Assembly (NCBI RefSeq): GCF_054482525.1
Contig: NZ_CM137006.1
Direction: 5' to 3' (one strand)
DNA: 64,000 nucleotides
Numbering within the stretch: position 1 is the stretch's first letter; every line of letters starts with the position of its first letter. This document shows, one piece after another, positions 1,015-55,617 of the stretch. The translations under genes were made by a program, and so were the position numbers. Below the pieces are notes generated by a model. The model was not told the origin of the DNA and did no database searches. It saw only the letters and a program-made list of their open reading frames with translations.

Positions 1015-1258
1015 AAGGTTTTACTCCTGTCGTAATTAATTGTTCAGCCGCCGTGCCGTAAAAATATCTCCTTGTTTAACCATAGACGGCGGCTTGCAGG
1101 CACACCTTCGCCCCTGAGAAAATTTAATCAGGTTGTGAGCTACCGCGCATTATGCCGTCTGTAAGGTTATCTTCTGGAGTATAGACAAGGAGTTAGGAAA
1201 TATGACTGCTATTCGAAATTCATATTACCCAACCTGAGAGGAATTTAATTAAACGCTA

Positions 1259-2665: not shown

Positions 2666-2743
2666 TATCGAATCGTTATTATGTGCAGGTGATTCGGCAG
2701 TCTATATCAGTTGTTAAAAATGACAACTTTTCATAAACTGTTA

Positions 2744-3181
<438 letters not shown>

Positions 3182-3205
3182 GTCATTAACCTTTTTAATT
3201 GGCGA

Positions 3206-3382
3206 TTAACTCAAACCGAGTTGTTTCAGAATAGCTTTATGCAAGGGTTCTTTAATCTCTTCGCTGGGGAGACGCGGCATGACACTGCGCCTCCCGTGAA
3301 AACTGAGTTTTAAATGGTTGCTGCCATTCGCTACATCGACGCCCTGAGATTCGAGCCAACGTCTGAACTCGCTTTGTTTCAC
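3206..3382 (-). CDS. hicA: HicA mRNA-interferase toxin, GTG start
   Basis: Not in the ORF track (58 aa, GTG start). Hand translation of the reverse complement: VKQSEFRRWLESQGVDVANGSNHLKLSFHGRRSVMPRLPSEEIKEPLHKAILKQLGLS, stop at 3206-3208. Confidence 0.85.
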   Translation of the reverse strand: MKQSEFRRWLESQGVDVANGSNHLKLSFHGRRSVMPRLPSEEIKEPLHKAILKQLGLS

Positions 3383-3603
3383 ATCGCCTCCCTGCCGCTG
3401 AGTATATCAACAAAGTAAACATTAGTGTTTACCTCCGTATGTAATTTGCTCGAAAATAGCACTTAATCGCCGCAACGGCAGAATGCAATGCAAAATCAGG
3501 AAGGAAGATTCCAGAATTTCTTTGCGCTAATTTGCAAAACTGAATAAGAACCTCAAGAAACGATCGGCATCATAGCGGCAAAAGGTGAGAAAAAGGTGGC
3601 GGG

Positions 3604-3834
3604 ATGTTTACGAAGGCGTTATCGGTTGTCTTATTAACGTGTGCGCTGTTCTCAGGACAACTCATGGCAGGGCACAAAGGACATGAATTTATGTGGGTAA
3701 AGAATGTGGATCATCAGCTACGTCATGAAGCGGACAGCGATGAATTGCGTGCCGTGGCGGAAGAGTCGGCGGAAGGTTTGCGCGAGCATTTTTACTGGCA
3801 AAAATCGCGCAAACCAGAAGCGGGACAACGTTAA
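3604..3834 (+). CDS. yncJ: Small secreted protein of unknown function (DUF2554)
   Basis: 76-aa ORF with N-terminal signal-peptide-like segment MFTKALSVVLLTCALFSGQLMA. Confidence 0.8.
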   Translation: MFTKALSVVLLTCALFSGQLMAGHKGHEFMWVKNVDHQLRHEADSDELRAVAEESAEGLREHFYWQKSRKPEAGQR

Positions 3835-3844
3835 GTCGTTTGAT

Positions 3845-3875
3845 GCCGGATGCGGCGTAACGCCTTACCCGGCAG
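3845..3875. repeat. REP (repetitive extragenic palindromic) element
   Basis: gccggatgcggcgtaacgccttacccggc closely matches the E. coli REP consensus GCCGGATGCGGCGTGAACGCCTTATCCGGCCTAC; lies between convergent yncJ and ydcP. Confidence 0.7.
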
Positions 3876-3925
3876 GCAATATCATGCAGATTCAATAAGT
3901 TGTGAGTAACCAGAAAACTGGCGTT

Positions 3926-5887
3926 TTACCCTTTTCGCTTCGGCAATGTTTTCAGCAGCTCATCCGGACTTACGGATGCCACTACGCTTCCCGGTAACGG
4001 CATTTTCAGTATGTGATTTTTGATTTTGCCAATGACGTGCATCTCGCATGGGCGGCAATCAAACTTTAGCGTTAATACTTCATCGCCGTTAACCAGTTGC
4101 ATTGGCGTCGCCTTCCAGCTTTTGATATTGCCTTTCGCCTGTTTCGGGCACAGATTAAAGGCAAAGCGCAGACAATGCTTGGTGATCATCACCGGGACTT
4201 CGCCCTTCTCTTCATGTGCCTCATACGCCGCGTCAATCAGCTGCACACCATAGCGATGATAAAATTCACGCGCTTTCTGGTTGTATACGTTCGCGAGGAA
4301 ACTCAGATGCGTTTGCGGATAAACCGGCGCAGGATCAGCAACCGGTTTACGGCTGCCCCGCTGGTAACTGGCAAGACGTGCAGCATCCAGCATGTCGGCG
4401 GCTTCACGGCGGAACTGGTTTAACAGACTGTTTGATACAAACAGCGCACCCGGCAAATTAATTTGCACATCGCGGGCGTAATAGATGGTTTGCCCCAGTT
4501 TTGCCAGACCATCCTTTAGATTGTTCATTGCTTTTTCGGCGTTATTGGCTTCGTCGAAATGCCCGTCCAGCGTATGCGTGATGCTGACACCCTCTTCACT
4601 GGTGAGGGTCAGAATCAGTTGTTCCTGCCAGCCGCCCAGTTCAATGTCTACCGCCACCCGACGTTCGCTGGATGTTTTTGTCAGTGCCTGCTGCCAGTTA
4701 TGATCAAGATTACGGTTTAGTGGGTGATGCGGGCGAATTTTGTGCAACTCTGCTGGCATTTCATTGGGCCAGACGCGGTACTGATTTTCTCCGGTTTTCT
4801 CGACCGTATTGGCACGAAAGCCGACGACTTCACGTTTAATCATCACGTTCAGGCCATCGCCATTTGCCAGTGGTTCGGAAACGGCAACATCGAGATGATC
4901 TTTCGCCACTTTCAATACTTCACCCACCGGCAGGCCGATAAATTTCGGCGAATCGAACGCGCCAATATCGCCTTTACGGGCATTCACAAAATAATCTGTG
5001 CTACCACGGTTGAAAGTCTTTTCCGTCGATGGAACAAAGAAATGTTCAGTACGACCTGATGAAGCACGCGCCAGATCGCCACGTTCTTCAATAATGGCAT
5101 CCAGCATTTGGCGATAATGCGCGGTGATATTCTTCACGTAGCTCATATCTTTGTAACGCCCTTCAATCTTGAAGGAGCGTACGCCAGCATCAATCAGCGC
5201 GCCGAGGTTGGCAGTCTGATCGTTATCTTTCATCGACAGCAGATGTTTTTCATAGGAAACCACCCGCCCCTGATCGTCTTTCAATGTGTATGGCAAACGG
5301 CACGCCTGCGAGCAATCGCCACGGTTGGCGCTACGCCCTGTTTGCGCATGAGAAATGTAGCACTGACCCGAATAGGCCACGCACAGTGCGCCATGAATAA
5401 AGAATTCAATGGTCGCGTCCGTGGCCTGGTGAATCGCGCGGATCTGCTCAAGATTCAGCTCTCGCGCCAGCACAATCTGCGTAAAGCCAACATCAGAGAG
5501 GAACTTCGCTTTTTCGACTGTACGAATATCGCACTGCGTACTGGCGTGCAGTTCAATCGGCGGAATATCAAGTTCCAGAATCCCCATATCCTGAACAATC
5601 AGCGCATCGACGCCGGTCTGGTAGAGGTTGGTAATCAGCCGTTGCGCAGGTTCCAGCTCATCATCATGCAAAATGGTGTTAAGCGTGACAAAAATTTTTG
5701 CACCATAACGATGGGCAAACGGCACCAGTTCGGCAATATCTTTCAGGCTATTACTGGCATTATGACGGGCACCAAAACCAGGGCCGCCGATATAAACAGC
5801 ATCGGCACCGTGCAAAATAGCTTCGCGGGCAATGGCGGCATCGCGTGCCGGGCTTAACAGTTCAAGTCGATGAGAAGATACGGTCAC
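3926..5887 (-). CDS. ydcP: Peptidase U32-family protein (23S rRNA 5-hydroxycytidine synthase RlhA)
   Basis: Track ORF 3926..5929 (667 aa). The 653-aa form I recall for K-12 starts at the in-frame GTG at 5887 (VTVSSHRLELLSPARDAAIAREAILHGADAVYIGGPGF...). Confidence 0.85.
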   Translation of the reverse strand: MTVSSHRLELLSPARDAAIAREAILHGADAVYIGGPGFGARHNASNSLKDIAELVPFAHRYGAKIFVTLNTILHDDELEPAQRLITNLYQTGVDALIVQDMGILELDIPPIELHASTQCDIRTVEKAKFLSDVGFTQIVLARELNLEQIRAIHQATDATIEFFIHGALCVAYSGQCYISHAQTGRSANRGDCSQACRLPYTLKDDQGRVVSYEKHLLSMKDNDQTANLGALIDAGVRSFKIEGRYKDMSYVKNITAHYRQMLDAIIEERGDLARASSGRTEHFFVPSTEKTFNRGSTDYFVNARKGDIGAFDSPKFIGLPVGEVLKVAKDHLDVAVSEPLANGDGLNVMIKREVVGFRANTVEKTGENQYRVWPNEMPAELHKIRPHHPLNRNLDHNWQQALTKTSSERRVAVDIELGGWQEQLILTLTSEEGVSITHTLDGHFDEANNAEKAMNNLKDGLAKLGQTIYYARDVQINLPGALFVSNSLLNQFRREAADMLDAARLASYQRGSRKPVADPAPVYPQTHLSFLANVYNQKAREFYHRYGVQLIDAAYEAHEEKGEVPVMITKHCLRFAFNLCPKQAKGNIKSWKATPMQLVNGDEVLTLKFDCRPCEMHVIGKIKNHILKMPLPGSVVASVSPDELLKTLPKRKG

Positions 5888-5959
5888 ATTCTTATCCAGT
5901 AGCTGAAAAATGGCGGCTATTTTAGCCACAAGCGCGACGTTGCGAAATAGTTTTCCCGC

Positions 5960-6496
5960 TTAACTGCGTGGGTAATGGATGAGAGAATGAAAATGTACGA
6001 TTTGCTCCCCACCATTACGATAGATATGCGTAACGTCTGCAGCAAATCGAGCGCCTTCTCCACAATTAAGGCTCTGCCATTCACCATCAACGCACAGATC
6101 AAGTTGCCCATCAATGACGACAACATGTTCGATTACTCCCTTCTCATGGGGCGTCGATTCACTTAATGCACCTGGTGCCATCTGAATCGAGAAGTGTTCA
6201 AAGCAGAGTTGTGGATCATAAGGAAACAGTGAAGTGATCACCATCGCCTGCTGTTGCGGATCATAAACTGAAGGCGTATCGGACTGCGGCGGAGAAATAA
6301 ATGTCGAAAATGGCACGTTCAACCCGGTGGCAATTTTCCATAATGTCGCGACCGTCGGGCTGGACTCATTACGCTCAATCTGCCCTAACATCGCTTTAGA
6401 AACGCCCGTCGCTTCTGCCAGTCGCGAAAGACTCCAGCCGCGCTGCTGACGTAGCTGTTTAAGTGTGGTGGATAAAAAGCGAGTGAGATTTTCCAT
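5960..6496 (-). CDS. ydcN: XRE-family HTH transcriptional regulator with C-terminal cupin domain
   Basis: 178-aa ORF MENLTRFLSTTLKQLRQQRGWSLSRLAEATGVSKAMLGQIERNESSPTV... (HTH) followed by a cupin-like C-terminus. Confidence 0.85.
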   Translation of the reverse strand: MENLTRFLSTTLKQLRQQRGWSLSRLAEATGVSKAMLGQIERNESSPTVATLWKIATGLNVPFSTFISPPQSDTPSVYDPQQQAMVITSLFPYDPQLCFEHFSIQMAPGALSESTPHEKGVIEHVVVIDGQLDLCVDGEWQSLNCGEGARFAADVTHIYRNGGEQIVHFHSLIHYPRS

Positions 6497-6587
6497 GTGA
6501 CTCCTCCGGCAAAGCGGAAGTTTATCACTTGTGCGTTATAACGGACAAATGCTACGGTGCCTGTACGCTATAACGCACGAGGTGACC

Positions 6588-7760
6588 ATGCGTCTGTTTT
6601 CTATTCCTCCACCCACGCTACTGGCGGGGTTTCTGGCGGTATTAATTGGCTACGCCAGTTCAGCGGCAATAATCTGGCAAGCAGCGATTGTCGCCGGAGC
6701 CACCACTGCACAAATCTCTGGCTGGATGACGGCGCTGGGGCTGGCAATGGGCGTCAGTACGCTGGCTCTGACATTATGGTATCGCGTACCTGTTCTCACC
6801 ACATGGTCAACGCCTGGCGCGGCTTTGTTGGTCACCGGATTACAGGGACTAACACTTAACGAAGCCATCGGCGTTTTTATTGTCACCAACGCGTTAATAG
6901 TCCTCTGCGGCATAACGGGACTCTTTGCTCGTCTGATGCGCATTATTCCGCACTCGCTTGCGGCGGCAATGCTTGCCGGGATTTTATTACGCTTTGGTTT
7001 ACAGGCGTTTGCCAGTCTGGATGGTCAATTTACGTTGTGTGGCAGTATGTTGCTGGTATGGCTGGCAACCAGGGCCGTTGCGCCGCGCTATGCGGTAATT
7101 GCCGCGATGATTATTGGGATCGTGATCGTTATCGCGCAAGGTGACGTTGTCACAACTGATGTTGTCTTTAAACCCGTTCTCCCCACTTATATTACCCCTG
7201 ATTTTTCGTTTGCTCACAGCCTGAGCGTTGCACTCCCCCTTTTTCTGGTGACGATGGCATCGCAAAACGCACCGGGTATCGCAGCAATGAAAGCAGCTGG
7301 ATATTCGGCTCCTGTTTCGCCATTAATTGTATTTACTGGATTGCTGGCACTGGTTTTTTCCCCTTTCGGCGTTTATTCCGTCGGCATTGCGGCAATCACC
7401 GCGGCTATTTGCCAAAGCCCGGAAGCGCATCCGGATAAAGATCAACGTTGGCTGGCAGCTGCCGTTGCCGGCATTTTCTATTTGCTCGCAGGTCTGTTTG
7501 GTAGTGCCATTACCGGGATGATGGCTGCCCTGCCCGTAAGTTGGATCCAGATGCTGGCAGGTCTGGCGCTGTTGAGTACCATTGGCGGCAGTTTGTATCA
7601 GGCGCTGCATAATGAGCGTGAGCGCGACGCGGCGGTGGTGGCATTTCTGGTAACGGCAAGTGGATTGACGCTGTTCGGGATTGGTTCTGCGTTTTGGGGA
7701 TTAATTGCCGGAGGCGTTTGTTACGTGGTGTTGAATTTAATCGCTGACAGAAACCGATAA
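6588..7760 (+). CDS. ydcO: BenE-family (benzoate-like) inner-membrane transporter
   Basis: Track ORF begins at GTG 6531; the 391-aa form starts at ATG 6588 (MRLFSIPPPTLLAGFLAVLIGYASS...). Polytopic hydrophobic protein. Confidence 0.85.
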   Translation: MRLFSIPPPTLLAGFLAVLIGYASSAAIIWQAAIVAGATTAQISGWMTALGLAMGVSTLALTLWYRVPVLTTWSTPGAALLVTGLQGLTLNEAIGVFIVTNALIVLCGITGLFARLMRIIPHSLAAAMLAGILLRFGLQAFASLDGQFTLCGSMLLVWLATRAVAPRYAVIAAMIIGIVIVIAQGDVVTTDVVFKPVLPTYITPDFSFAHSLSVALPLFLVTMASQNAPGIAAMKAAGYSAPVSPLIVFTGLLALVFSPFGVYSVGIAAITAAICQSPEAHPDKDQRWLAAAVAGIFYLLAGLFGSAITGMMAALPVSWIQMLAGLALLSTIGGSLYQALHNERERDAAVVAFLVTASGLTLFGIGSAFWGLIAGGVCYVVLNLIADRNR

Positions 7761-7794
7761 TAAAAAGCGCCATCTAACGATGGCGCGTCTGGAA

Positions 7795-8463
7795 CTACTT
7801 TTTGTTAACGTCAAACATGGTGGCATCGGTCGCCATGTCATCAATAACTTGTTTAATATTTTCGAAAGCCATTGGCGTACTTTCGTTATTCAGGTCTTTA
7901 CCTTCGCCCTGACGAACGACTTTGATAACCGGTTTATTAGTCGCTGCATCAATCAGCTCACCTTCAAAATACAGGCGAGTATCCATGGTACGGTGGCCCG
8001 TCGCCATTTGCGTCCCCGCGACCACTAATGCGACAGGAACCACTTCATAGAATTGCAGCCCTTCTTTGCTGGTATCAACACCGGTAATGGCCCCACGGAA
8101 AATCAGACTACGCGGCCCAGCGGTGGTAACCAGTGGTTTACGCTGCGCTATCGCTTCTTTCATTTCGGTGTTGGTATAGTTCAAAATTTTATCCAGAACT
8201 TTCTGCCCTACCTGGGTTGAAGGTTTCGGTACCGGATAATAAGTGACTGGGTTCCAGACTATGCTGTCATATTTGCTTTGATCAAAACTCGGGTCTACCC
8301 AACGTAAAACAGGTTTACCTGTTGCTGAGGTTGTTTCTTTTAAATCAGAGTAATTGTTTAAAAAACCAGAATATTTATCTGGCTGGGTGATTTTAGAGGC
8401 ACAACCAGACAGAGCCAACAAGCCGCATAAAGCTGCAACTTTCGCAATTGATGTGGTACGCAT
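7795..8463 (-). CDS. ydcL: Lipoprotein (DUF3313)
   Basis: 222-aa ORF with lipobox MRTTSIAKVAALCGLLALSGC. Confidence 0.85.
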   Translation of the reverse strand: MRTTSIAKVAALCGLLALSGCASKITQPDKYSGFLNNYSDLKETTSATGKPVLRWVDPSFDQSKYDSIVWNPVTYYPVPKPSTQVGQKVLDKILNYTNTEMKEAIAQRKPLVTTAGPRSLIFRGAITGVDTSKEGLQFYEVVPVALVVAGTQMATGHRTMDTRLYFEGELIDAATNKPVIKVVRQGEGKDLNNESTPMAFENIKQVIDDMATDATMFDVNKK

Positions 8464-8561
8464 GAATAGTTTCCTGAGATGATTATATTACTTTCTAAGT
8501 TATAGCAAAAAGCGCCGCTTCGTGTTGTGGCAAAAAAAGTGTTGGTGAAAATAAATTTTTC

Positions 8562-8603
8562 AGCCCCTTTTCAGACGACATAGTCAATGCCGAAAAAGGG
8601 GCT
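8562..8603 (-). terminator. Putative terminator hairpin downstream of tehAB
   Basis: Inverted repeat agcccctttt / aaaaggggct with ~20-nt loop, flanked by A/T runs, about 160 nt below the tehB stop. Confidence 0.35.
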
Positions 8604-8765
8604 AAGTCAATCATCAGTAGTTAAATTTCAGTGAGTTAAGCGGCTAAAAAACTTCGACTACTGTGATTAATTTCACATCCCTTCGATAAAAAATATGCTT
8701 ACCGAAAAGAAGAACAGTAAACCATCTCAGCGTGGGGAATTTTCACGCGCTTTGTTCTTACCGGA

Positions 8766-9359
8766 TCATTTTTTACGTGCCAGCATCGTGGCGAAACGCA
8801 GTTTAATACGATTACCGTTGGCGTCGGTGCGGTGCAGCTCGCCGACGTCTTCATTGTATTTCACCCTCTCCCAGCCTTCGTAATATCGACGTAATTCTCC
8901 CTCTTTGAAGGCAAACGGGAAGCCGACGGTACATGGATAATCAGCGGTATCCATCGCCGCCACAATCAGGTTGTAACCGCCAGGTTTCGTGCAACGTTGC
9001 ATATTGGCAATCAGCCCTGGGATGGTTTTAGCCTCAAGGAACATCAGCACCACAGTCGAAATAATAAAATCGTACTGTCCATCAAATGTGAGGTTATTCA
9101 GATCAACGACCCGGGTGTGTAAATTATCCAGATTTTCAATGGACTTAATGCGCTCGACGTTGGCGATACTCATGGCATTTTTATCCCATGCGTCAACATC
9201 ATAACCATTGGCTGCCAGGTAAAGACTGTTACGACCATTGCCACAGCCCAGATCCAGCGTTTTACCCGGTTTAACCACTTTCACCGCTTCCAGCACTTCA
9301 GAGTGTGTGCGGGTTAATTCATATTTATCAGTAAAATAGTTTTCATCACGAATGATCAT
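8766..9359 (-). CDS. tehB: Tellurite methyltransferase (SAM-dependent)
   Basis: 197-aa ORF with SAM-binding motif [15 protein letters not shown]; start overlaps the tehA stop by 4 nt. Confidence 0.95.
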
Positions 9360-10348
9360 TCTTTGTCCTCTGCTTTCATTAAAACGGCGCGCTCGGTTCT
9401 GACTAACAATTTTCCCTGCATCAGAAGCGCAAAAGTACGGATGAGCAGTATTGCAATAATAAAATTGGTAAAGATAAACAGCGGCACCGCCAGCGTATGG
9501 AAAAATCCATTATCGCTGCCACTCCCCAGATGCAAACCGGTGGTTGCCAGTGCAGATACGCCGAACGAGAAACTCCAGAATGAAGCATTAAATGGCTGGG
9601 AGAGATACCATGGCATCAGACGTAGCATAAACAGCAGTTGCAGCAGTCCATAACCGAAAAGCATTTTCGCCAGCGTGTCACCCTCGCCGCCGTTGACGCT
9701 CAGCCAGGCACTACAGGCCACCAGCGCAGGAGCGAGCTGAATGCCGAGTGATGTCCGCAGCGCCGTGGGTAATTCTCCCGAACTGCGCAGACGCTGCAAG
9801 ATCACCGGTTCAAGGCTTAGCCATGAGAAAACGCCTGCGCCTAAAAACACCAGACCGGCGTCGGTGTAGCCCAACGCACCACAGGCCATTGCGCTGATAA
9901 AGTTGTTGGCAACTGTCGGCAGATACAGTCCAGGCGTGGTAGCTTCTTCAGGGTGAGATCCGCGCCATAATCCCGCAGTTTGCCATGCGGCATAAGCCAG
10001 TTGCACCACGACACCAAAACTGAACAGGCACACCGCCAGTGGGCGAAACCACGGAACAAAACCAATCGCCACCAACATCGTCGTTGCCGGAAACAAACTC
10101 ACAAAACTGCTCAGCACTGGATGGCGAACTTCCGCCAGCACGCTATGCGGAAAGCGTATGAGTCGGGTAATAAATGCGCTAGTTAATAATCCCCAGATGA
10201 TCATCGCCAGAATCACCAGCCCATCCCCTAACCAGTGGCTGACCTGCCAAACCTGGCTGGCATAGCGCCAGGCAAATCCCATCCCTATCGTCCCCAACAC
10301 AATACCAAAGTAGCCTGCCGGCAAATTGAGCACTTTATCGCTCTGCAT
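9356..10348 (-). CDS. tehA: Tellurite-resistance / C4-dicarboxylate-transporter-family membrane protein
   Basis: Track ORF extends to 10456; the 330-aa form starts at the internal ATG 10348 ([30 protein letters not shown]...). Confidence 0.9.
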
Positions 10349-10471
10349 CTTCTTACTCATTTTGTTTAATTTATAAAGTATATTTGAAATGCATTTTATG
10401 GAATTTTCTCGAGCATAGCCAGAGCCGCAGAATTTGCTACGGTTATAGTAAGTCACCTGTGAGAAAACGCT

Positions 10472-11452
10472 ATGCGCAAATATCGTCTAAGTGAAGAACA
10501 GCGAGCCTTTAGTTATCAGGAAGATGGCACTAAAAAAAGTGTGTTATTACGGCAGATTATCGCCATTAGCGATTTTAACGATGTGATAGCAGGAACCGCT
10601 GGCGGCTGGATCGATCGCGAAACGGTGTTAGCGCAGGAAGGAAATTGCTGGATTTACGACCAGAATGCTATTGCGTTCGGCGGAACGGTGATTTCCGGTA
10701 ATACGCGTATCACCGGCACCAGCGTACTGTGGGGAGAGGTTTACGCAACGGATAACGTCTGGATCGATAATAGTGAAATCAGCCAGGGTGCATATATAAG
10801 TGACAGCGTCACCATTCGTGACTCATTAGTTTGTGGTCAATGTAGAATATTTGGTCACGCCTTAATTGATCAACATTCTATGATCGTCGCCGCACAAGGC
10901 TTAACGCCCGACCATCAACTCCTGCTACAAATTTATGATCGCGCAAGGGTTAGCGCCTCGCGTATTGTCCACCAGGCACAAATTTATGGCGATGCCGTCG
11001 TCCGGTATGCTTTTATTGAACATCGCGCCGAAGTTTTTGATTTTGCCAGTGTTGAAGGTAATGAAGAGAACAACGTCTGGCTATGCGATTGCGCTAAAGT
11101 TTACGGTCACGCGCAGGTGAAAGCTGGCATAGAAGAAGATGCCATTCCGACGATTCATTACAGTTCACAGGTGGCGGAATATGCCATTGTGGAAGGTAAT
11201 TGTGTGTTAAAACATCATGTCTTGATTGGCGGAAGTGCTGTGGTACGTGGTGGACCGATTCTGCTCGACGAGCACGTTGTAATACAAGGTGAGAGCCGTA
11301 TTACAGGTGCGGTGATAATTGAAAACCATGTGGAGTTAACCGACCACGCCGTCGTTGAAGCCTTTGATGGCGACACGGTTCATGTCCGTGGTCCAAAAGT
11401 CATTAACGGCGAGGAGCGCATTACGCGAACGCCGCTGGCAGGGTTATTGTGA
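10472..11452 (+). CDS. ydcK: Left-handed beta-helix (hexapeptide-repeat) protein of unknown function
   Basis: 326-aa ORF with repeated hexapeptide-like segments; 3' end overlaps convergent rimL by 9 bp. Confidence 0.85.
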
Positions 11453-11983
11453 ATCGATAATACGCGCGTATAAGTTCACATCATCATAGGCATCATTCAG
11501 GAACTCAGCCTGTTTCAGACAACCTTCAAGGATAAAACCATTGCGCAAAGCGACCTGGTTGCTTTGCGCATTGTCCACCCGACATTTGATCACGAAGCGT
11601 CTAAGTTCACCAGACTGAGCGTAATGATGAATCAATGCCTGCAGCGCCTGAGAAATGATCCCCTGCCCCTGATGAGATTCGTCCAGCCAGTAGCCGATTT
11701 CAGCGGTTTTATTCAGTGGTTCAATACGATTAAACGAGATAACGCCGATAAGTTCATCTTCTTTGAAAATCATGAACATTTTGGCATATCCGCGTTGATG
11801 CAACATTACATTGCCCTGCACCGTTTTTCGTGTGTCCTCTTCACTTTGAACAAACTGCGGCCAGTTTAGCGACTGCTGTAACCAGGTTCTATTTTTACAG
11901 ATTAACTGATAAAGAGGTGTGACATGACTTTCTGCAACAGCATGTAATTCAAGTGATTCACTTACTTTTATCGTTTCGGTCAT
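11444..11983 (-). CDS. rimL: Ribosomal protein L7/L12 serine N-acetyltransferase
   Basis: 179-aa form from the internal Met ([27 protein letters not shown]...); GNAT fold; track ORF starts 5 codons upstream. Confidence 0.9.
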
Positions 11984-12045
11984 CTTATCTCCAGTCAATC
12001 CATGCAGTTGTTAAAAAAGCCGCCTGGCTGGCGGCTTAGGAAAGT

Positions 12046-12270
12046 TTACACCTCTTTGACGCTCTCCTGCTGCAGGATTTTGAGCATCTCATCTTTTAAC
12101 TGTAGCTTTTGTTTTTTCATGCGGACCACTTCCGCATTGTACCCTCGACCGTCGGAACCTTCCTTTTTGGCAATTTCATGATCAAGTTTATTGTGTTTAT
12201 CGAACAAGGACATAAAGCGAGGATTTTCGTTTTTCAGACGGGATATTAAATCTCGGTATTCTGGAAACAT
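12046..12270 (-). CDS. ydcH: Small DUF465 protein
   Basis: Track ORF 76 aa; 74-aa form MFPEYRDLISRLKNENPRFMSLFDKHNKLDHEIAKK... Confidence 0.8.
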   Translation of the reverse strand: MFPEYRDLISRLKNENPRFMSLFDKHNKLDHEIAKKEGSDGRGYNAEVVRMKKQKLQLKDEMLKILQQESVKEV

Positions 12271-12409
12271 ACGCACTCCCTGTTAGTGGCTGACAAGGTG
12301 TATCTGAAATACACACCATCAGATTACTCATTTAACTTAGGGAAAAATGCGAGCGGGATCGTGTTTAACCAGACGGCACCTCCCGAAGAAGGTACCGAAG
12401 AAAAAACGA

Positions 12410-14065
12410 TTAACTCATCACGCGGTCGTCAACATACTGACGTTTATCGGGCGCTGGCGGGAAATACTGATACAGCCATGTTTCACTGATAGCGTCGCCC
12501 TGACAACGCAGATACATCCGCATATCGACCGGATCAGTGGAGTCCGAAGTCGGATACCAGTCAAACTGAATACGATAACCATCAATGGGTTCAATATAGA
12601 GAATTTCGATTTGCTTCGCTTCCCCACTGGAAAGCGTAATCACCGGCTCAATGCCTTTTGGCGCGGCAGCTTTCAGATCACCACCAACGAAATCGACGGC
12701 AAAACGACGCGCCCATTTTTCGGGATAGTGTTCACCTGGAGCCCAACCTTCCGGGAAACCGCCCATGCCGGTACGCGTCGCCATAACGCGCGCTAATGGG
12801 CAATGAACAGGCGGTTGCGCACTCCAGTACAGACGATACTGGAATGCAAACTCATCACCCGCTTTTACAGCTTTTTCTGGCTGCCAGAAGCAGACAATGT
12901 TATCCAGCGTTTCGCCCGTTGTTGGGATTTCCATCAGGCCGATGGTGCCCTTACCCCACTTGTTACGCGGCTCCACCCACAGACTTGGGCGTTTGTTATA
13001 CCAGCCCATAATGTCCTGATAATGGGAGAAATCACGATCCAGTTGCAATAAACCAAACCCTTTCGGGTTGTTGTCGGTGTAAGCATTGAACTGCAATTTT
13101 TGCGGATTATTCAGCGGACGGCAAATCCACTCGCCATTGCCCCGCCACATGGACAGACGATCTGAGTCATGGATTTGCGGATGAATGGTGTCGCACATCC
13201 GACGTTCATTAGTACCGCAGCTGAACATGCTGGTCATCGGCGCAATGCCCAGCTGTTTAATGTCTTTGCGCGCATACAGGTGATTTTCCACATCCATAAT
13301 CACCTGACTTTTCTCACAATGGATAGTGAACTTATAGGCACCAGTAATGCTGGCGCTATCGAGCAACGCATAAACGGTAAAGGTGGTTGCCCCCGGTTTT
13401 ACCGTATCAAACCAGAAGGCGGTAAAGTCGGGGAACTCTTCTTTACTGTCGGTGTAAGTGTCGATCGCCAGGCCGCGAGCCGACAAACCGTATTGATATG
13501 TATCATCAACCGCGCGGAAATAACTCGCGCCGAGGAATGATACGACATCACGGCGCGCCAGTTCGGGGGCTTTAAACACGCGAAAACCGGCAAAACCGAG
13601 ATCGCTTTGCCCTTCTAATTGTTTGGTATCAACACCCGCATCGTTGTATTTGAACAACTCCGGGCGAAAGTGAATTTCACGCGCCAGATGTGTTGCGGGA
13701 TCAACAGAAAACATACGAACGCGGCGACGGAATCCCATTCCCATATGGAAGAACTGAGCGTCCAGTTGACGGTTCTCAACGTTATGCCAGAGCGATTTTT
13801 CGGCGTCGTATTGAATACTGTTATAAGCCTGCGGCGTCATTGTCGCCAGAGTGTCAGGTAACGGACGCGGCGCACTACGCCACGCGGTTTGCGCTAAGTC
13901 GTGCGCCATTGACTGTAGAATGGAGAAGTCAAAACGCTGGGTTTGCCCGTCGGCAATATCAGAATCTGCCGCGAATGCCGCCTGAGAAAAAAGAGAAGCA
14001 ATGCCGCTGGTACCGCACACGGCGGCCATAGCCATTGAACCTTTAATAAATCGTCTACGATCCAT
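12410..14065 (-). CDS. opgD: Glucans biosynthesis protein D (periplasmic, Tat-exported)
   Basis: 551-aa ORF with twin-arginine signal [32 protein letters not shown]. Confidence 0.95.
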
Positions 14066-48351: not shown

Positions 48352-50397
48352 ATGCAGCAGTTAGCCAGTTTCTTATCCGGTACCTGGCAGTCTGGCCGGG
48401 GCCGTAGCCGTTTGATTCACCACGCTATTAGCGGCGAGGCGTTATGGGAAGTGACCAGTGAAGGTCTTGATATGGCGGCTGCCCGCCAGTTTGCCATTGA
48501 AAAAGGTGCCCCCGCCCTCCGCGCGATGACCTTTATCGAACGTGCGGCGATGCTTAAAGCGGTCGCTAAACATCTGCTGAGTGAAAAAGAGCGTTTCTAT
48601 GCTCTTTCTGCACAAACAGGCGCAACGCGGGCAGACAGTTGGGTTGATATTGAAGGTGGCATTGGGACGTTATTTACATACGCCAGCCTCGGTAGCCGGG
48701 AGCTGCCTGACGATACGCTGTGGCCGGAAGATGAATTGATCCCCTTATCGAAAGAAGGTGGATTTGCCGCGCGCCATGTACTGACCTCAAAGTCAGGCGT
48801 GGCAGTGCATATTAACGCCTTTAACTTCCCCTGCTGGGGAATGCTGGAAAAGCTGGCACCAACGTGGCTGGGCGGAATGCCAGCCATCATCAAACCAGCT
48901 ACCGCGACGGCCCAACTGACTCAGGCGATGGTGAAATCAATTGTCGATAGTGGTCTTGTTCCCGAAGGCGCAATTAGTCTGATCTGCGGTAGTGCGGGCG
49001 ACCTTTTGGATCATCTGGACAGCCAAGATGTGGTGACTTTCACGGGGTCCGCGACGACCGGACAGATGCTGCGAGTTCAGCCAAATATCGTTGCCAAATC
49101 TATCCCCTTCACCATGGAAGCTGATTCCCTGAACTGCTGCGTACTGGGCGAAGATGTCACCCCGGATCAACCGGAGTTTGCGCTGTTTATTCGTGAAGTT
49201 GTGCGTGAGATGACCACAAAAGCTGGGCAAAAATGTACGGCAATCCGGCGGATTATTGTGCCGCAGGCATTGGTTAATGCTGTCAGTGATGCTCTGGTTG
49301 CGCGATTACAGAAAGTCGTGGTCGGTGATCCTGCGCAGGAAGGCGTGAAAATGGGCGCACTGGTAAATGCTGAGCAGCGTGCCGATGTGCAGGAAAAAGT
49401 GAACACATTGCTGGCTGCAGGATGCGAGATTCGCCTCGGTGGTCAGGCGGATTTATCTGCTGCGGGTGCCTTCTTCCCGCCAACCTTATTGTACTGTCCG
49501 CAGCCGGATGAAACACCGGCGGTACATGCAACAGAAGCCTTTGGCCCTGTCGCAACACTGATGCCTGCACAAAACCAGCAACATGCTCTGCAACTGGCTT
49601 GTGCAGGCGGCGGTAGCCTTGCGGGAACGCTGGTGACGGCTGATCCGCAAATTGCGCGTCAGTTTATTGCCGACGCGGCACGTACGCATGGGCGAATTCA
49701 GATCCTCAATGAAGAATCGGCAAAAGAATCCACCGGGCATGGCTCCCCACTGCCACAACTGGTACATGGTGGGCCTGGTCGCGCAGGAGGCGGTGAAGAA
49801 TTAGGTGGTTTACGGGCGGTGAAACATTACATGCAGCGAACCGCTGTTCAGGGTAGTCCGACGATGCTTGCCGCTATCAGTAAACAGTGGGTGCGTGGTG
49901 CGAAAGTCGAAGAAGATCGTATTCATCCGTTCCGCAAATATTTTGAGGAGCTGCAACCAGGCGACAGCCTGTTGACTCCCCGCCGCACAATGACAGAGGC
50001 CGATATTGTGAACTTTGCTTGCCTCAGCGGCGATCATTTCTATGCACATATGGATAAGATTGCTGCTGCCGAATCTATTTTTGGTGAGCGTGTAGTACAT
50101 GGGTATTTTGTGCTTTCTGCGGCTGCGGGTCTGTTTGTCGATGCCGGAGTTGGTCCGGTCATTGCTAACTACGGGCTGGAAAACTTGCGTTTTATCGAAC
50201 CCGTAAAACCAGGCGATACCATCCAGGTGCGTCTCACCTGTAAGCGCAAGACGCTGAAAAAACAGCGTAGCGCAGAAGAAAAACCAACAGGTGTAGTGGA
50301 ATGGGCGGTAGAGGTATTCAATCAGCATCAAACCCCGGTGGCGCTGTATTCAATTCTGACGCTGGTGGCCAGGCAGCACGGTGATTTTGTCGATTAA
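48352..50397 (+). CDS. paaZ: Bifunctional oxepin-CoA hydrolase / 3-oxo-5,6-dehydrosuberyl-CoA semialdehyde dehydrogenase
   Basis: 681-aa ORF; N-terminal aldehyde dehydrogenase domain plus C-terminal MaoC-like hotdog domain. Confidence 0.95.
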
Positions 50398-50407
50398 TCG
50401 GTGAATG

Positions 50408-50438
50408 AAGGGCAACGGCGAATAGTTGCCCTTTTATT
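50408..50438 (+). terminator. Rho-independent terminator of paaZ
   Basis: gggcaacggcgaatagttgccc followed by ttttattt. Confidence 0.65.
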
Positions 50439-50644
50439 TCACCAAATTTTGTGACGTTGTCACGTTATGCATGATGTGTATCTGTATTTTCAGGGCACCC
50501 ACTGTATGAAAAGCTGGCACACCTGCCAAACAACCTGGCAGGTGCAGGCAATCCCCTTTACATCAGTACTGATAATGTGAACCTGACTAAACCGCCCACA
50601 GAGCGCGGTTGCTAACAAGAACACAACATCTGACGAGGTTAATA

Positions 50645-52918
50645 ATGGGAAGCCCCTCTCTGTATTCTGCCCGTAAAACAGCCGTGGCGTTGGCAGTCGC
50701 CTTAAGTTTCGCCTGGCAAGCGCCGGTATTTGCCCACGGTGGCGAAGCGCATATGGTGCCAATGGATGAAACGCTTAAAGAATTTGGTGCCGATGTGCAG
50801 TGGGACGACTACGCCCAGATCTTTACCCTGATTAAAGATGGCGCGTACGTGAAAGTGAAACCGGGTGCGCAAACAGCAATTGTTAATGGTCAGCCTCTGG
50901 CACTGCAAGTACCGGTAGTGATGAAAGACAATAAAGCCTGGGTTTCTGACACCTTTATTAACGATGTTTTCCAGTCCGGGCTGGATCAAACCTTTCAGGT
51001 AGAAAAGCGCCCTCACCCACTTAATGCGCTAACTGCGGACGAAATTAAACAGGCCGTTGAAATTGTTAAAGCTTCCGCGGACTTCAAACCCAATACCCGT
51101 TTTACTGAGATTTCCCTGCTACCGCCAGATAAAGAAGCTGTCTGGGCGTTTGCGCTGGAAAACAAACCGGTTGACCAGCCACGCAAAGCCGACGTCATTA
51201 TGCTCGACGGCAAACATATCATCGAAGCGGTGGTGGATCTGCAAAACAACAAACTGCTCTCCTGGCAACCCATTAAAGACGCCCACGGTATGGTGTTGCT
51301 GGATGATTTCGCCAGTGTGCAGAACATTATTAACAACAGTGAAGAATTTGCCGCTGCCGTGAAGAAGCGCGGTATTACTGATGCGAAGAAAGTGATTACC
51401 ACGCCGCTGACCGTAGGTTATTTCGATGGTAAAGATGGCCTGAAACAAAATGCCCGGTTGCTCAAAGTCATCAGCTATCTTGATGTCGGTGATGGCAACT
51501 ACTGGGCACATCCCATCGAAAACCTGGTGGCGGTCGTTGACTTAGAACAGAAAAAAATCGTTAAGATTGAAGAAGGTCCGGTAGTTCCGGTGCCAATGAC
51601 CGCACGCCCATTTGATGGCCGTGACCGCGTTGCTCCGGCAGTTAAACCTATGCAAATCATCGAGCCTGAAGGTAAAAATTACACCATTACTGGCGATATG
51701 ATTCACTGGCGTAACTGGGATTTTCACCTCAGCATGAACTCTCGCGTCGGGCCGATGATCTCCACCGTGACTTATAACGACAATGGCACCAAACGCAAAG
51801 TCATGTACGAAGGTTCTCTCGGCGGCATGATTGTGCCTTACGGTGATCCTGATATTGGCTGGTACTTTAAAGCGTATCTGGACTCTGGTGACTACGGTAT
51901 GGGCACGCTAACCTCACCAATTGCTCGTGGTAAAGATGCACCGTCTAACGCAGTGCTCCTTAATGAAACCATCGCCGACTACACTGGCGTGCCGATTGAG
52001 ATCCCTCGCGCTATCGCGGTATTTGAACGTTATGCCGGGCCGGAGTATAAGCATCAGGAAATGGGCCAGCCCAACGTCAGTACCGAACGCCGGGAGTTAG
52101 TGGTGCGCTGGATCAGTACAGTGGGTAACTATGACTACATTTTTGACTGGATCTTCCATGAAAACGGCACTATTGGCATTGATGCCGGTGCTACGGGCAT
52201 CGAAGCGGTGAAAGGTGTTAAAGCGAAAACCATGCACGATGAGACGGCGAAAGATGACACGCGCTACGGCACGCTTATCGATCACAATATCGTGGGTACT
52301 ACACACCAGCATATTTATAATTTCCGCCTCGATCTGGATGTAGATGGCGAGAATAACAGCCTGGTGGCGATGGACCCAGTGGTAAAACCGAATACTGCCG
52401 GTGGCCCACGCACCAGTACCATGCAAGTTAATCAGTACAACATCGGCAATGAACAGGATGCCGCGCAGAAGTTTGATCCGGGCACGATTCGTCTGTTGAG
52501 TAACCTGAACAAAGAGAATCGCATGGGCAATCCGGTTTCCTATCAAATTATTCCTTATGCAGGTGGTACTCACCCGGTAGCAAAAGGTGCCCAGTTCGCG
52601 CCGGACGAGTGGATCTATCATCGTTTAAGCTTTATGGACAAGCAGCTCTGGGTAACGCGTTATCATCCTGGCGAGCGTTTCCCGGAAGGCAAATATCCAA
52701 ACCGTTCTACTCATGACACCGGTCTTGGACAATACAGTAAAGATAACGAGTCGCTGGACAACACCGACGCCGTTGTCTGGATGACCACCGGCACCACACA
52801 TGTGGCCCGTGCCGAAGAGTGGCCGATTATGCCGACCGAATGGGTACATACCCTGCTGAAACCATGGAACTTCTTTGACGAAACGCCAACGCTTGGGGCG
52901 ATAAAGAAAGATAAGTGA
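50645..52918 (+). CDS. tynA: Periplasmic copper/topaquinone primary-amine oxidase
   Basis: 757-aa form from ATG 50645 with signal peptide MGSPSLYSARKTAVALAVALSFAWQAPVFA; track ORF starts 12 codons upstream. Confidence 0.95.
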   Translation: MGSPSLYSARKTAVALAVALSFAWQAPVFAHGGEAHMVPMDETLKEFGADVQWDDYAQIFTLIKDGAYVKVKPGAQTAIVNGQPLALQVPVVMKDNKAWVSDTFINDVFQSGLDQTFQVEKRPHPLNALTADEIKQAVEIVKASADFKPNTRFTEISLLPPDKEAVWAFALENKPVDQPRKADVIMLDGKHIIEAVVDLQNNKLLSWQPIKDAHGMVLLDDFASVQNIINNSEEFAAAVKKRGITDAKKVITTPLTVGYFDGKDGLKQNARLLKVISYLDVGDGNYWAHPIENLVAVVDLEQKKIVKIEEGPVVPVPMTARPFDGRDRVAPAVKPMQIIEPEGKNYTITGDMIHWRNWDFHLSMNSRVGPMISTVTYNDNGTKRKVMYEGSLGGMIVPYGDPDIGWYFKAYLDSGDYGMGTLTSPIARGKDAPSNAVLLNETIADYTGVPIEIPRAIAVFERYAGPEYKHQEMGQPNVSTERRELVVRWISTVGNYDYIFDWIFHENGTIGIDAGATGIEAVKGVKAKTMHDETAKDDTRYGTLIDHNIVGTTHQHIYNFRLDLDVDGENNSLVAMDPVVKPNTAGGPRTSTMQVNQYNIGNEQDAAQKFDPGTIRLLSNLNKENRMGNPVSYQIIPYAGGTHPVAKGAQFAPDEWIYHRLSFMDKQLWVTRYHPGERFPEGKYPNRSTHDTGLGQYSKDNESLDNTDAVVWMTTGTTHVARAEEWPIMPTEWVHTLLKPWNFFDETPTLGAIKKDK

Positions 52919-52930
52919 TTGTTTCAGACT

Positions 52931-52959
52931 AAAAAAACGGCACCAGGTGCCGTTTTTTA
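52931..52959. terminator. Bidirectional rho-independent terminator between convergent tynA and feaB
   Basis: aaaaaaacggcaccaggtgccgtttttt: perfect stem cggcacc / ggtgccg with A-run and T-run on either side. Confidence 0.75.
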
Positions 52960-52976
52960 CTTATGAGCGAACCAGA

Positions 52977-54476
52977 TTAATACCGTACACACACCGACTT
53001 AGTTTCACACCAACCGTCCAGCCAATCCGGGCCAAAATCACGGCCTGTTCCTGACTGCTTCATCCCACCAAACGGTAAGTTAGCGTCAATTAAGGTATGG
53101 CTGTTTACCCACACCGTACCTGCCTGTAAGCGATCGCTATATTCCAGAGCCTGGGAGAGATTTTGCGTCCAGACGCTGGCAGTTAAGCCATATTCCGTGT
53201 CGTTTGCCAGTTGTAACGCCTCTTCTCCATCCGCTACTCGCACCAGGTTAACCACCGGACCAAACACCTCTTCACGAGTTAAGCGCAATTTAGCATCGGG
53301 ATTAACCACCAGCGTTGGCGCAACATAATATCCCTCTCCGGCAGGTCCACTCGACCCGCGAATCAGTTCTGCTTGCTGTGCCTGCGCATCGTCGAGGAAT
53401 GAACGCACTTTGTCGCAATGCGCACGAGAAACCAAAGGGTTAATCTGTGCAACAAGTGACATCCCCGGTCCCACTTGCAACGATTTTACCGCCTGCTCAA
53501 ATCCACTAACCAGCGTGTCAAACAACGGCGCTTCAATATAAATTCGCGAACTGGCGGCGCATACTTGCCCCTGATTCAGGAAACTTCCGGTCATCAAACC
53601 TTCAATAACCCATTGCGGATCAGCATCTTTTAATACAATTGCCGGGTTTTTACCGCCCAGCTCCAGCGTTACACGCGTTAAGCGATCAGCCGCAGTTCTG
53701 GCAATACCTTTGCCCGTCGCGGTTGAACCGGTAAAACTAATTTTCGCGACATGAGGATGTGACGTCAGGGCCGCGCCGCATACAGCACCTGACCCGGTGA
53801 CCACATTAAAAACGCCATCAGGGATACCAGCCTCGCTGGCCAGTTCCGCCACGCGCAACATCGTCAGTGGCGTGGTTTCCGAAGGCTTAATCACGATTGA
53901 ACAGCCTGCTGCCAGTGCTGGCATCACCTTCCACATACCAATCATCAACGGAAAGTTCCATGGCACAATTCCCGCCACTACGCCAACCGGCTCTTTACGC
54001 GTCCAGGCCTGATAACGCGCCCCCTGGGGTAAGGGAATCGACAAGTCCAGCGTTTTACCCGCGATTTTGGTCGTTAACCCGGCGGTATAACGCATCCAGT
54101 TCAGCGTACAGCCCACTTCAAAAGCACGGGAAATGGCAATTGACTTGCCTTGCTCCAGGGTTTCCAGTTGCGCCAGCTCCTCACTGTGCTGCTCCACCAG
54201 ATCAGCAAAACGTAGCAGAATACGTTCACGCTCTGCGGGTAATCGCCCGGCCCAGCGACGCGAGACAAAGGCCCGCCAGGCAGACATGACTGCGTTATCT
54301 ACATCCGCTTCGTTGGCATCAGCAGTAGACGCAATTTCTTGCCCGGTGGCCGGATCAAAGATCGCCAACCGTTTTTCACTTTGTGCGGGGCCAGGACGAC
54401 CATCAATATAAAGACCGTGTTGACGATCGAGAAACTGTTGGACCTGGCTTAATACTGCTACATGCGGCTCTGTCAT
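52977..54476 (-). CDS. feaB: Phenylacetaldehyde dehydrogenase
   Basis: 499-aa form [37 protein letters not shown]...; aldehyde dehydrogenase family; track ORF starts one Met earlier. Confidence 0.95.
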
Positions 54477-54545
54477 CACTTTTCCTTATCATTTACCCAG
54501 TGTGATTTCAGTGTACGCAGCGACAAGAAAAGTCACTTTTTTCGC

Positions 54546-54592
54546 TGTGACATTCGCTTTGTCAGCTGTGACAAGCTCCGCAAATCGTGACA
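54546..54592. promoter_or_regulatory. Three phased direct repeats (C/T)GTGACA upstream of feaB; candidate FeaR activator site
   Basis: gcTGTGACA at 54546-54552, gcTGTGACA at 54567-54573, tCGTGACA at 54586-54592; spacing 21 and 19 bp; 67-113 bp upstream of the feaB start in the divergent feaB/feaR spacer. Confidence 0.45.
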
Positions 54593-54711
54593 ATAACCGC
54601 TTATGTCTCTATGCCTGACAAGACTTATTTCCTATAGTCAGGCTCATTAGCTTCGATTATCGCAACACAAATGCAACAATAAAAATACATTTCACAGAGC
54701 GAAAACGTGCC

Positions 54712-55617
54712 ATGAACCCCGCAGTGGATAATGAGTTTCAGCAATGGCTTTCCCAAATCAATCAGGTATGCGGAAATTTTACCGGGCGCCTGCTGACTGA
54801 GCGTTACACGGGTGTACTGGATACGCATTTTGCCAAAGGACTAAAGCTGAGTACCGTGACAACCAACGGGGTGAATTTATCCCGCACCTGGCAGGAAGTA
54901 AAAGGCAGCGACGATGCCTGGTTTTACACCGTTTTTCAGCTTAGTGGTCAGGCAATAATGGAGCAGGATGAGCGTCAGGTGCAGATTGGCGCTGGCGATA
55001 TTACGTTACTCGATGCCTCACGCCCCTGTTCGCTTTACTGGCAGGAGTCTTCTAAACAGATTTCATTACTTTTACCACGCACTCTGCTGGAACAATATTT
55101 TCCCCATCAAAAACCTGTCTGCGCAGAAAGACTGGACGCTGACTTACCTATGGTGCAACTCAGTCATCGCCTGTTGCAGGAGAGCATGAATAACCCGGCA
55201 CTTTCTGAAACAGAAAGTGAAGCTGCGCTACAGGCGATGGTGTGTCTGCTTCGCCCGGTACTTCATCAGCGGGAATCTGTTCAACCTCGGCGTGAACGTC
55301 AGTTTCAAAAAGTGGTTACGTTGATAGACGATAATATTCGCGAAGAGATATTACGCCCGGAGTGGATAGCCGGAGAGACAGGTATGTCAGTACGTAGTTT
55401 GTACCGAATGTTTGCCGATAAAGGTTTGGTGGTCGCGCAATATATTCGTAACCGTCGTCTCGATTTTTGTGCTGATGCGATTCGCCATGCCGCAGATGAT
55501 GAAAAACTGGCAGGCATTGGCTTTCATTGGGGATTTTCCGACCAGAGTCATTTTTCAACGGTATTTAAGCAACGCTTTGGGATGACGCCAGGCGAGTATC
55601 GCCGTAAATTCCGCTAA
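54712..55617 (+). CDS. feaR: AraC-family activator of tynA/feaB
   Basis: 301-aa ORF with C-terminal AraC-type HTH (...GFSDQSHFSTVFKQRFGMTPGEYRRKFR). Confidence 0.9.
   Translation: MNPAVDNEFQQWLSQINQVCGNFTGRLLTERYTGVLDTHFAKGLKLSTVTTNGVNLSRTWQEVKGSDDAWFYTVFQLSGQAIMEQDERQVQIGAGDITLLDASRPCSLYWQESSKQISLLLPRTLLEQYFPHQKPVCAERLDADLPMVQLSHRLLQESMNNPALSETESEAALQAMVCLLRPVLHQRESVQPRRERQFQKVVTLIDDNIREEILRPEWIAGETGMSVRSLYRMFADKGLVVAQYIRNRRLDFCADAIRHAADDEKLAGIGFHWGFSDQSHFSTVFKQRFGMTPGEYRRKFR

Follow-up and report, generated by a model that had tools for sequence, protein, structure and literature searches.

Two of the three phased heptamers that lie between feaB and feaR are very probably part of the operator already known for FeaR, an activator of the AraC/XylS family. 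According to this reading, which is held with high confidence together with the mechanism described below and derives from the comparison of orthologous sequences, each FeaR-dependent promoter would carry two asymmetric 16-bp units of the form TGNCA-N8-(A/C)AA, organized as direct repeats and both pointing toward the regulated gene. The stretch of DNA analysed, referred to hereafter as the window, comprises 64 kb, and the two promoters concerned are those of feaB and tynA.

The fea locus and the two-unit site at feaB

The window is Escherichia coli DNA, and the identities of paaZ, tynA, feaB and feaR were confirmed. The segment 50380-54730 (4.35 kb) is 100% identical to E. coli strain PCN033, where the RefSeq annotation reads paaZ, tynA, feaB and feaR, an order also present in K-12 MG1655. 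FeaR, TynA and PaaZ were identified by means of NCBIfam equivalogs, and the name feaB was taken from the RefSeq annotation. The four genes are the following:

48352-50397, + strand: paaZ (NCBIfam equivalog-level match)
50645-52918, + strand: tynA, periplasmic copper amine oxidase (NCBIfam NF011285, 1627 bits)
52977-54476, - strand: feaB, phenylacetaldehyde dehydrogenase (ATG at 54476 and in-frame GTG at 54479; the aldehyde dehydrogenase open reading frame spans 52977-54479)
54712-55617, + strand: feaR, AraC-family activator (NCBIfam NF007243 FeaR equivalog, 506 bits vs a cutoff of 199)

The Pfam domains of FeaR are AraC_binding_2 and, at the C-terminus, HTH_18/HTH_AraC, an AraC-type double helix-turn-helix. 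feaB and feaR are divergently oriented and separated by a spacer of 232-235 bp, and 247 bp separate paaZ from the downstream tynA. Across all the repeats, the feaB/feaR spacer of the window shows no differences from that of MG1655, so that experiments carried out in K-12 are applicable to the window. At the population level, no more than 3296 out of 5426 complete E. coli genomes carry the tynA-feaB-feaR block (50380-54730), and most of its copies are 95-99% identical to the window, which indicates that the locus is accessory and that the window strain carries a minority haplotype.

A preliminary description of this DNA had located three copies of (C/T)GTGACA in the spacer, about two helical turns apart and 67-113 bp upstream of feaB, and had proposed this heptamer as the sequence read by FeaR. 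All three copies are indeed found on the + strand, as TGTGACA at 54546-54552 (repeat 1) and 54567-54573 (repeat 2) and as CGTGACA at 54586-54592 (repeat 3), with measured spacings of 21 and 19 bp; the distance to feaB holds when counted from the GTG at 54479 and becomes 70-116 bp from the ATG at 54476. Conservation of the repeats was assessed in feaB-feaR loci gathered through a FeaR protein search and the subsequent recovery of the encoding contigs. They belong to Pseudocitrobacter (2 species), Pluralibacter, Kluyvera, Raoultella, Enterobacter, Klebsiella, Trabulsiella, Scandinavium, two other Enterobacteriaceae and a fragmented E. coli-like genome, and FeaR identity across them is 64-84%. 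The resulting alignment of 13 spacers has a mean column identity of 73%, and within it the elements discussed here are:

54510-54515, - strand: likely -10 hexamer of feaB, TACACT, replaced by TAGACT in the majority of the other species; AGTnTA is shared by 13/13 spacers
54537-54552, - strand: proximal FeaR unit of the feaB promoter, TGTCACAGCGAAAAAA; contains repeat 1, matches the motif exactly and is predicted to span about -49 to -34, reaching ~2 bp into the -35 region
54558-54573, - strand: distal FeaR unit of the feaB promoter, TGTCACAGCTGACAAA (TGNCA-N8-AAA); contains repeat 2, matches the motif exactly and is predicted to span about -70 to -55
54586-54592, + strand: repeat 3, CGTGACA; outside the conserved two-unit site

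Two stretches of the 13-spacer alignment, TTT-N8-TGNCA (54537-54552) and TTT-N8-cTGTGACA (54558-54573), are invariant or nearly so. Read on the other strand, the TGNCA end of the proximal feaB unit gives repeat 1 and that of the distal one gives repeat 2. Conservation of all three heptamers was not observed among the 13 spacers. Repeat 2 is invariant as CTGTGACA within the distal unit (13/13), with a CAA variant of the A-tract in Kluyvera and Klebsiella. In the proximal unit, invariance is limited to TG.CA and the T-run: the G-T ahead of TGNCA in repeat 1 differs from species to species, as does the central base, which is A or T (TGACA/TGTCA). Repeat 3 retains TGNCA, in the form GTGACA, in 5/13 spacers; it reads GCGACA in three (Pseudocitrobacter and locus L013) and GTGATA in one (Enterobacter), and is lost outright in four, being unrecognisable in Kluyvera, Raoultella, Klebsiella and Trabulsiella. 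Moreover, its sequence on the feaB strand is TGTCA-N8-GGA, with GGA replacing the A-tract, and it lies 19 bp, not 21 bp, from the distal unit. A role of repeat 3 as the -35 or -10 hexamer of feaR or of a second feaB promoter was also considered and discarded, there being no convincing conserved partner hexamer.

The earlier proposal of phased direct repeats of the kind used by AraC-family activators is thus borne out for repeats 1 and 2, which coincide with the conserved units and would abut the feaB -35 region, and fails for repeat 3. The site at feaB has two conserved units and not three copies, and the conserved unit is TGNCA-N8-(A/C)AA on the feaB-sense (minus) strand instead of (C/T)GTGACA. 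The E. coli-like sequence GCA_025847755.1 (positions 1-12905 of its locus), in which paaZ, tynA, feaB, feaR and ydbH are each fragmented, bears a 1-bp deletion in the A-tract of the proximal feaB unit; this looks like decay of the pathway or, alternatively, an assembly with abundant frameshift errors.

A CRP-like sequence and other elements of the feaB/feaR spacer

Repeat 2 has a second possible meaning. Control of feaR by CRP was reportedly proposed by Zeng and Spiro in 2013, and a candidate site overlaps the distal unit:

54567-54582, no strand assigned: candidate CRP-like sequence TGTGA-caagct-CCGCA; overlaps the distal FeaR unit and is centred ~71 bp from both predicted divergent starts

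That the TGTGA of repeat 2 and CCGCA form a CRP site placing feaR, and perhaps feaB, under carbon control is compatible with the operator reading and is considered rather unlikely, yet several observations speak for it. CRP class I sites have the form TGTGA-N6-TCACA and lie near -61.5 or -71.5; repeat 2 holds a perfect TGTGA half-site, and 6 bp further on CCGCAA(A/T)T is conserved across genera. The candidate departs from TGTGA-N6-TCACA by two mismatches (8/10 core positions) with both critical G/C pairs intact, and 11 of 12 species carry a sequence with no more than two mismatches at the corresponding place in the alignment, the TCACA half being confounded with the FeaR unit. In addition, the TTGCGG flank upstream of the distal unit is conserved in feaB and nothing similar is found at the tynA units. 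However, matches to the CRP core with two or fewer mismatches do not exceed chance in the window (25 vs 27.7 expected), and the feaR start used for the positioning is itself a prediction from the conserved TATAnT at 54633-54638. The candidate also shares 7 bp with the distal FeaR unit, so that both proteins could hardly bind together. At the experimental level, feaR is listed among the RegulonDB CRP targets, but genomic SELEX did not recover it as a target of CRP (PMC3105977).

A more elaborate form of this idea, to be regarded as more doubtful still, is that the distal feaB unit constitutes a composite element in which the invariant TGTGACA and CCGCAAWT make up the CRP site at 54567-54582, with CRP and FeaR competing for it or handing over to each other. 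An overlapping CRP constraint of this type could be the reason why repeat 2 is invariant as a whole and repeat 1 only as TGNCA. If it existed, the composite element would couple carbon status to feaR expression and confer a carbon dependence specific to feaB.

Other conserved sequences lie on the feaR side of the spacer. TATAGT at 54633-54638 (TATAnT invariant in 13 species), embedded in a conserved TTCTTTCnTATAgT block, is likely the -10 hexamer of feaR; the lack of a recognisable -35 partner suggests that feaR itself needs an activator. An inverted repeat that brackets this putative hexamer (GCCTGAC-N17-GTCAGGC, 54613-54643) was rejected as a candidate element: it is not conserved even within E. 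coli, and the altered left arm seen in a second E. coli strain and outside Escherichia indicates that it is probably fortuitous. Closer to the gene, a cgCAaCanAAATGCAACAaT block at 54661-54680, 32-51 bp before the feaR ATG, includes two copies of GCAACA 11 bp apart, and little or no variation is seen in its 3' half, AAATGCAACA, among the 13 enterobacterial spacers. Immediately downstream, AAAATACATTT at 54682-54692 has one mismatch to the NsrR 11-mer AANATGCATTT, matches to which are below chance in the window; within two mismatches, this 11-mer has no match in the tynA spacer, including the ATGCAT flank of the palindrome described below. NsrR was reportedly found at the feaB and tynA promoter regions by Rankin and colleagues in 2008.

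The tynA promoter and the probable determinant common to both promoters

As the counterpart of the heptamers at tynA, the other FeaR-dependent gene, the preliminary description had put forward a GTGAC palindrome. Nine tynA promoters were aligned, with the following result:

50451-50463, no strand assigned: palindrome GTGAC-gtt-GTCAC, flanked by the probable paaZ terminator and the tynA promoter; not conserved as a FeaR element
50515-50530, + strand: distal FeaR unit of the tynA promoter, TGGCACACCTGCCAAA; exact match, TGGCA and CAAA invariant in 9/9 aligned promoters
50536-50551, + strand: proximal FeaR unit of the tynA promoter, TGGCAGGTGCAGGCAA; CAA replaces AAA, TGGCA invariant in 9/9, 21 bp after the distal unit
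50573-50578, + strand: likely -10 hexamer of tynA, TAATGT; its second and sixth bases, the A at 50574 and the T at 50578, are invariant

The sole long stretch that is invariant in the nine promoters is cTGGCA-N7-CAAA-N5-TGGCA-N8-cAA (50514-50551), with an AAT variant of the A-tract in the proximal unit of Buttiauxella. This pair of units lies 52-88 bp downstream of the palindrome and at the same distance from the -10 as the pair of feaB. In E. coli a GATAAT is present at 50571-50576, 2 bp upstream of TAATGT. On the opposite strand, a consensus scan returned a promoter-like match, TTGGCA-17-TACAGT (50501-50529, minus), that is oriented against tynA and overlaps the distal FeaR unit; its -10 part falls in sequence unconserved outside Escherichia.

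The palindrome itself exists at 50451-50463, 182 bp before the tynA ATG (50645), in the window, in K-12 and in a divergent E. coli. Nonetheless, it is absent from all seven non-Escherichia tynA promoters of the alignment (among them Pseudocitrobacter, Enterobacter, Trabulsiella, Scandinavium, Buttiauxella and locus L017), three of which, those of Scandinavium, Buttiauxella and L017, still have paaZ as upstream neighbour, and its region aligns with the E. coli-like genome only. Inverted repeats of this design, with perfect 5-bp arms around a 3-nt spacer, occur 76 times in the window and GTGAC/GTCAC pentamers 103 times, and the arms of the palindrome stop at 5 bp; it is an ordinary 5-bp inverted repeat, unremarkable in this DNA. 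A CRP site at the palindrome was rejected on account of its spacing, which is 5 bp and not 6 (TGTGA-cgttg-TCACG). Two observations concern its surroundings. Directly 3' of the paaZ stop, a hairpin GGGCAAC-N8-GTTGCCC followed by TTTTATTT (50411-50440) is a probable intrinsic terminator placed between paaZ and the tynA promoter. Positions 50464-50498, located 3' of the palindrome and 5' of the promoter, show many differences among three E. coli strains and the flanks, that is, the palindrome side and the sequence from 50499, are near-identical.

The model in which FeaR reads (C/T)GTGACA, three phased copies of which activate feaB, and in which the GTGAC-N3-GTCAC palindrome is the corresponding element of tynA, is very improbable and appears largely refuted by the comparative data. 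It draws on a cluster of three copies that is non-random, on the overlap of two of them with conserved sequence, on the persistence of the palindrome in three divergent E. coli strains whose adjacent 35 bp vary, and on a single TGACA-N8-AAA match given by the minus strand of the palindrome. However, retention within E. coli says little because there is so little divergence there, and the single motif match faces away from tynA and belongs to a class of which ~15 are expected by chance in the window. Furthermore, the conserved tynA units are TGGCA and hold no GTGAC, which, together with the free bases before TGNCA in repeat 1, the loss or alteration of repeat 3 in 8/13 spacers, with neither A-tract nor phase, and the absence of the palindrome from 7/7 non-Escherichia tynA promoters, argues against this model. 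In a weaker variant of the composite-element idea, repeat 3 and the tynA palindrome may be Escherichia-specific auxiliary FeaR sites of low affinity.

The operator reading makes use instead of the two-unit arrangement. A single TGNCA-N8-AAA unit is found 20 times in the window, vs 15.3 expected. By comparison, the composite TGNCA-N8-AAA-N5-TGNCA-N8-MAA, whose last triplet was relaxed to MAA after seeing the CAA of tynA in the window, yields exactly two matches in the 64 kb vs 0.01 expected, one upstream of and co-oriented with tynA and the other with feaB. The composite pattern is found at the homologous position in most orthologous loci, and a relaxed scan of 14 feaB and 10 tynA regions detected exactly one TGNCA pair with 21-bp phasing per promoter in all 24. 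When 40 units from 20 non-redundant promoters of different enterobacteria (12 feaB and 8 tynA) were pooled, T1, G2, C4, A5 and A15 proved fixed (40/40) and A16 nearly so (39/40); at position 14, 31 units have A and 9 have C, and position 3 is free, mostly T and sometimes A at feaB and G at tynA. The mean information content is 1.74 bits in the motif columns vs 0.64 bits elsewhere. As judged from these alignments, the determinant common to both promoters would be TGNCA plus an A-tract one helical turn downstream, and not GTGAC.

These data also leave practically no room for the view that the repeats are a product of chance or of mutational duplication devoid of regulatory role: YGTGACA is not enriched across the whole window (12 matches vs 16.5 expected), but three same-strand copies within 50 bp appeared in 0/2000 dinucleotide-preserving shuffles, which makes the cluster real and not fortuitous, units 1 and 2 have been kept without change in the different enterobacterial genera in a spacer that has otherwise diverged, and the unit recurs at tynA, so that this view is refuted for repeats 1 and 2 and possible for repeat 3 alone.

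Proposed mechanism and relation to known systems

At both promoters and in every species, 37 bp separate the start of the proximal TGNCA from the conserved -10-like hexamer, a constant distance from which the proximal unit would overlap the -35 region by ~2 bp. Positions relative to +1 rely on this conserved hexamer and assume that it spans -12 to -7, which gives about -70 to -55 for the distal and -49 to -34 for the proximal units; the starts are predicted near 54503 (-) for feaB and 50585 (+) for tynA, and that of feaR near 54645 (+). With a simple sigma-70 scan, neither spacer yielded a correctly oriented consensus promoter, which fits with activator-dependent promoters. By analogy with characterized members of the family, the layout of feaB and tynA is the one usual for an AraC/XylS-family activator.

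In the proposed mechanism, the 21-bp spacing would correspond to two helical turns and leave both units on the same face of the DNA. Each unit would accommodate one FeaR monomer, whose two helix-turn-helix motifs may contact adjacent major grooves, one at TGNCA and the other at the A-tract, and the two monomers would dimerise through the N-terminal ligand-binding domain. With the proximal unit entering ~2 bp into a poor -35 region, bound FeaR would recruit RNA polymerase directly in a class II configuration. Both the binding of one monomer per unit and the class II contact with sigma are inferred from XylS, AraC and RhaS. Activation would take place once FeaR has bound its ligand, the aromatic aldehyde produced by TynA from phenylethylamine, tyramine or dopamine. 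FeaR activates tynA and feaB (PMC4640556) and, as a sensor of the TynA-derived aldehydes, it drives PtynA (PMC11542736). The FeaR of Klebsiella aerogenes is functional in a TynA-FeaR-PtynA sensor system (PMC11542736), in line with the conservation of the motif.

The feature is already known, and what has been achieved here is a re-derivation of the FeaR operator. According to Zeng and Spiro, who are said to have described it in E. coli K-12 in 2013, the FeaR site is TGNCA-N8-AAA, with two copies in each of the tynA and feaB promoters, and FeaR binding and the loss of activation upon mutation of the motif were reportedly shown in the same study. Repeats 1 and 2 of the feaB/feaR spacer are taken to be this published binding site. 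This motif served as a lead and was then tested independently by phylogenetic footprinting; in a full-text search of literature other than the paper of Zeng and Spiro itself, the motif was not found quoted. The published operator and that of the window coincide in genes, in sequence (the spacer being identical to MG1655), in motif, in copy number and in promoters; the proximal tynA unit has CAA in the window vs the AAA of the published motif, and there is otherwise no substantive difference. As the E. coli FeaR operator was defined in 2013, the finding carries little weight as a discovery. The preliminary description recovered half of the operator, namely the two feaB units, with wrong motif bases, an unconserved third copy and the wrong element at tynA. 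The corrected map places two copies of TGNCA-N8-(A/C)AA, 21 bp apart and 37 bp from the -10, at 54537-54573 (-) and 50515-50551 (+); it may be useful for the design of FeaR/PtynA biosensors and for regulon annotation in other enterobacteria, and, as far as conservation indicates, the GTGAC palindrome could be omitted from minimal tynA promoter constructs.

The FeaR site resembles those of XylS at Pm, AraC at araI1-I2 and RhaS at rhaI1-I2 in the use of asymmetric units of ~15-17 bp, with two blocks one helical turn apart, that are arranged as direct repeats with 21-bp phasing and, as predicted for FeaR, have the proximal unit abutting or overlapping the -35 region. In the case of XylS, two direct repeats of TGCA-N6-GGNTA are placed 21 bp apart at Pm and the proximal one overlaps the -35 by 2 bp. 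FeaR is not known to have a distant O2-like looping site. The proteins are likewise comparable, since FeaR shares with XylS, AraC and RhaS a dual helix-turn-helix and an N-terminal domain for ligand binding and dimerisation. FeaR differs from them in its recognition sequence (TGNCA ... AAA), in the family of its N-terminal domain (AraC_binding_2) and in its effector, an aromatic aldehyde.
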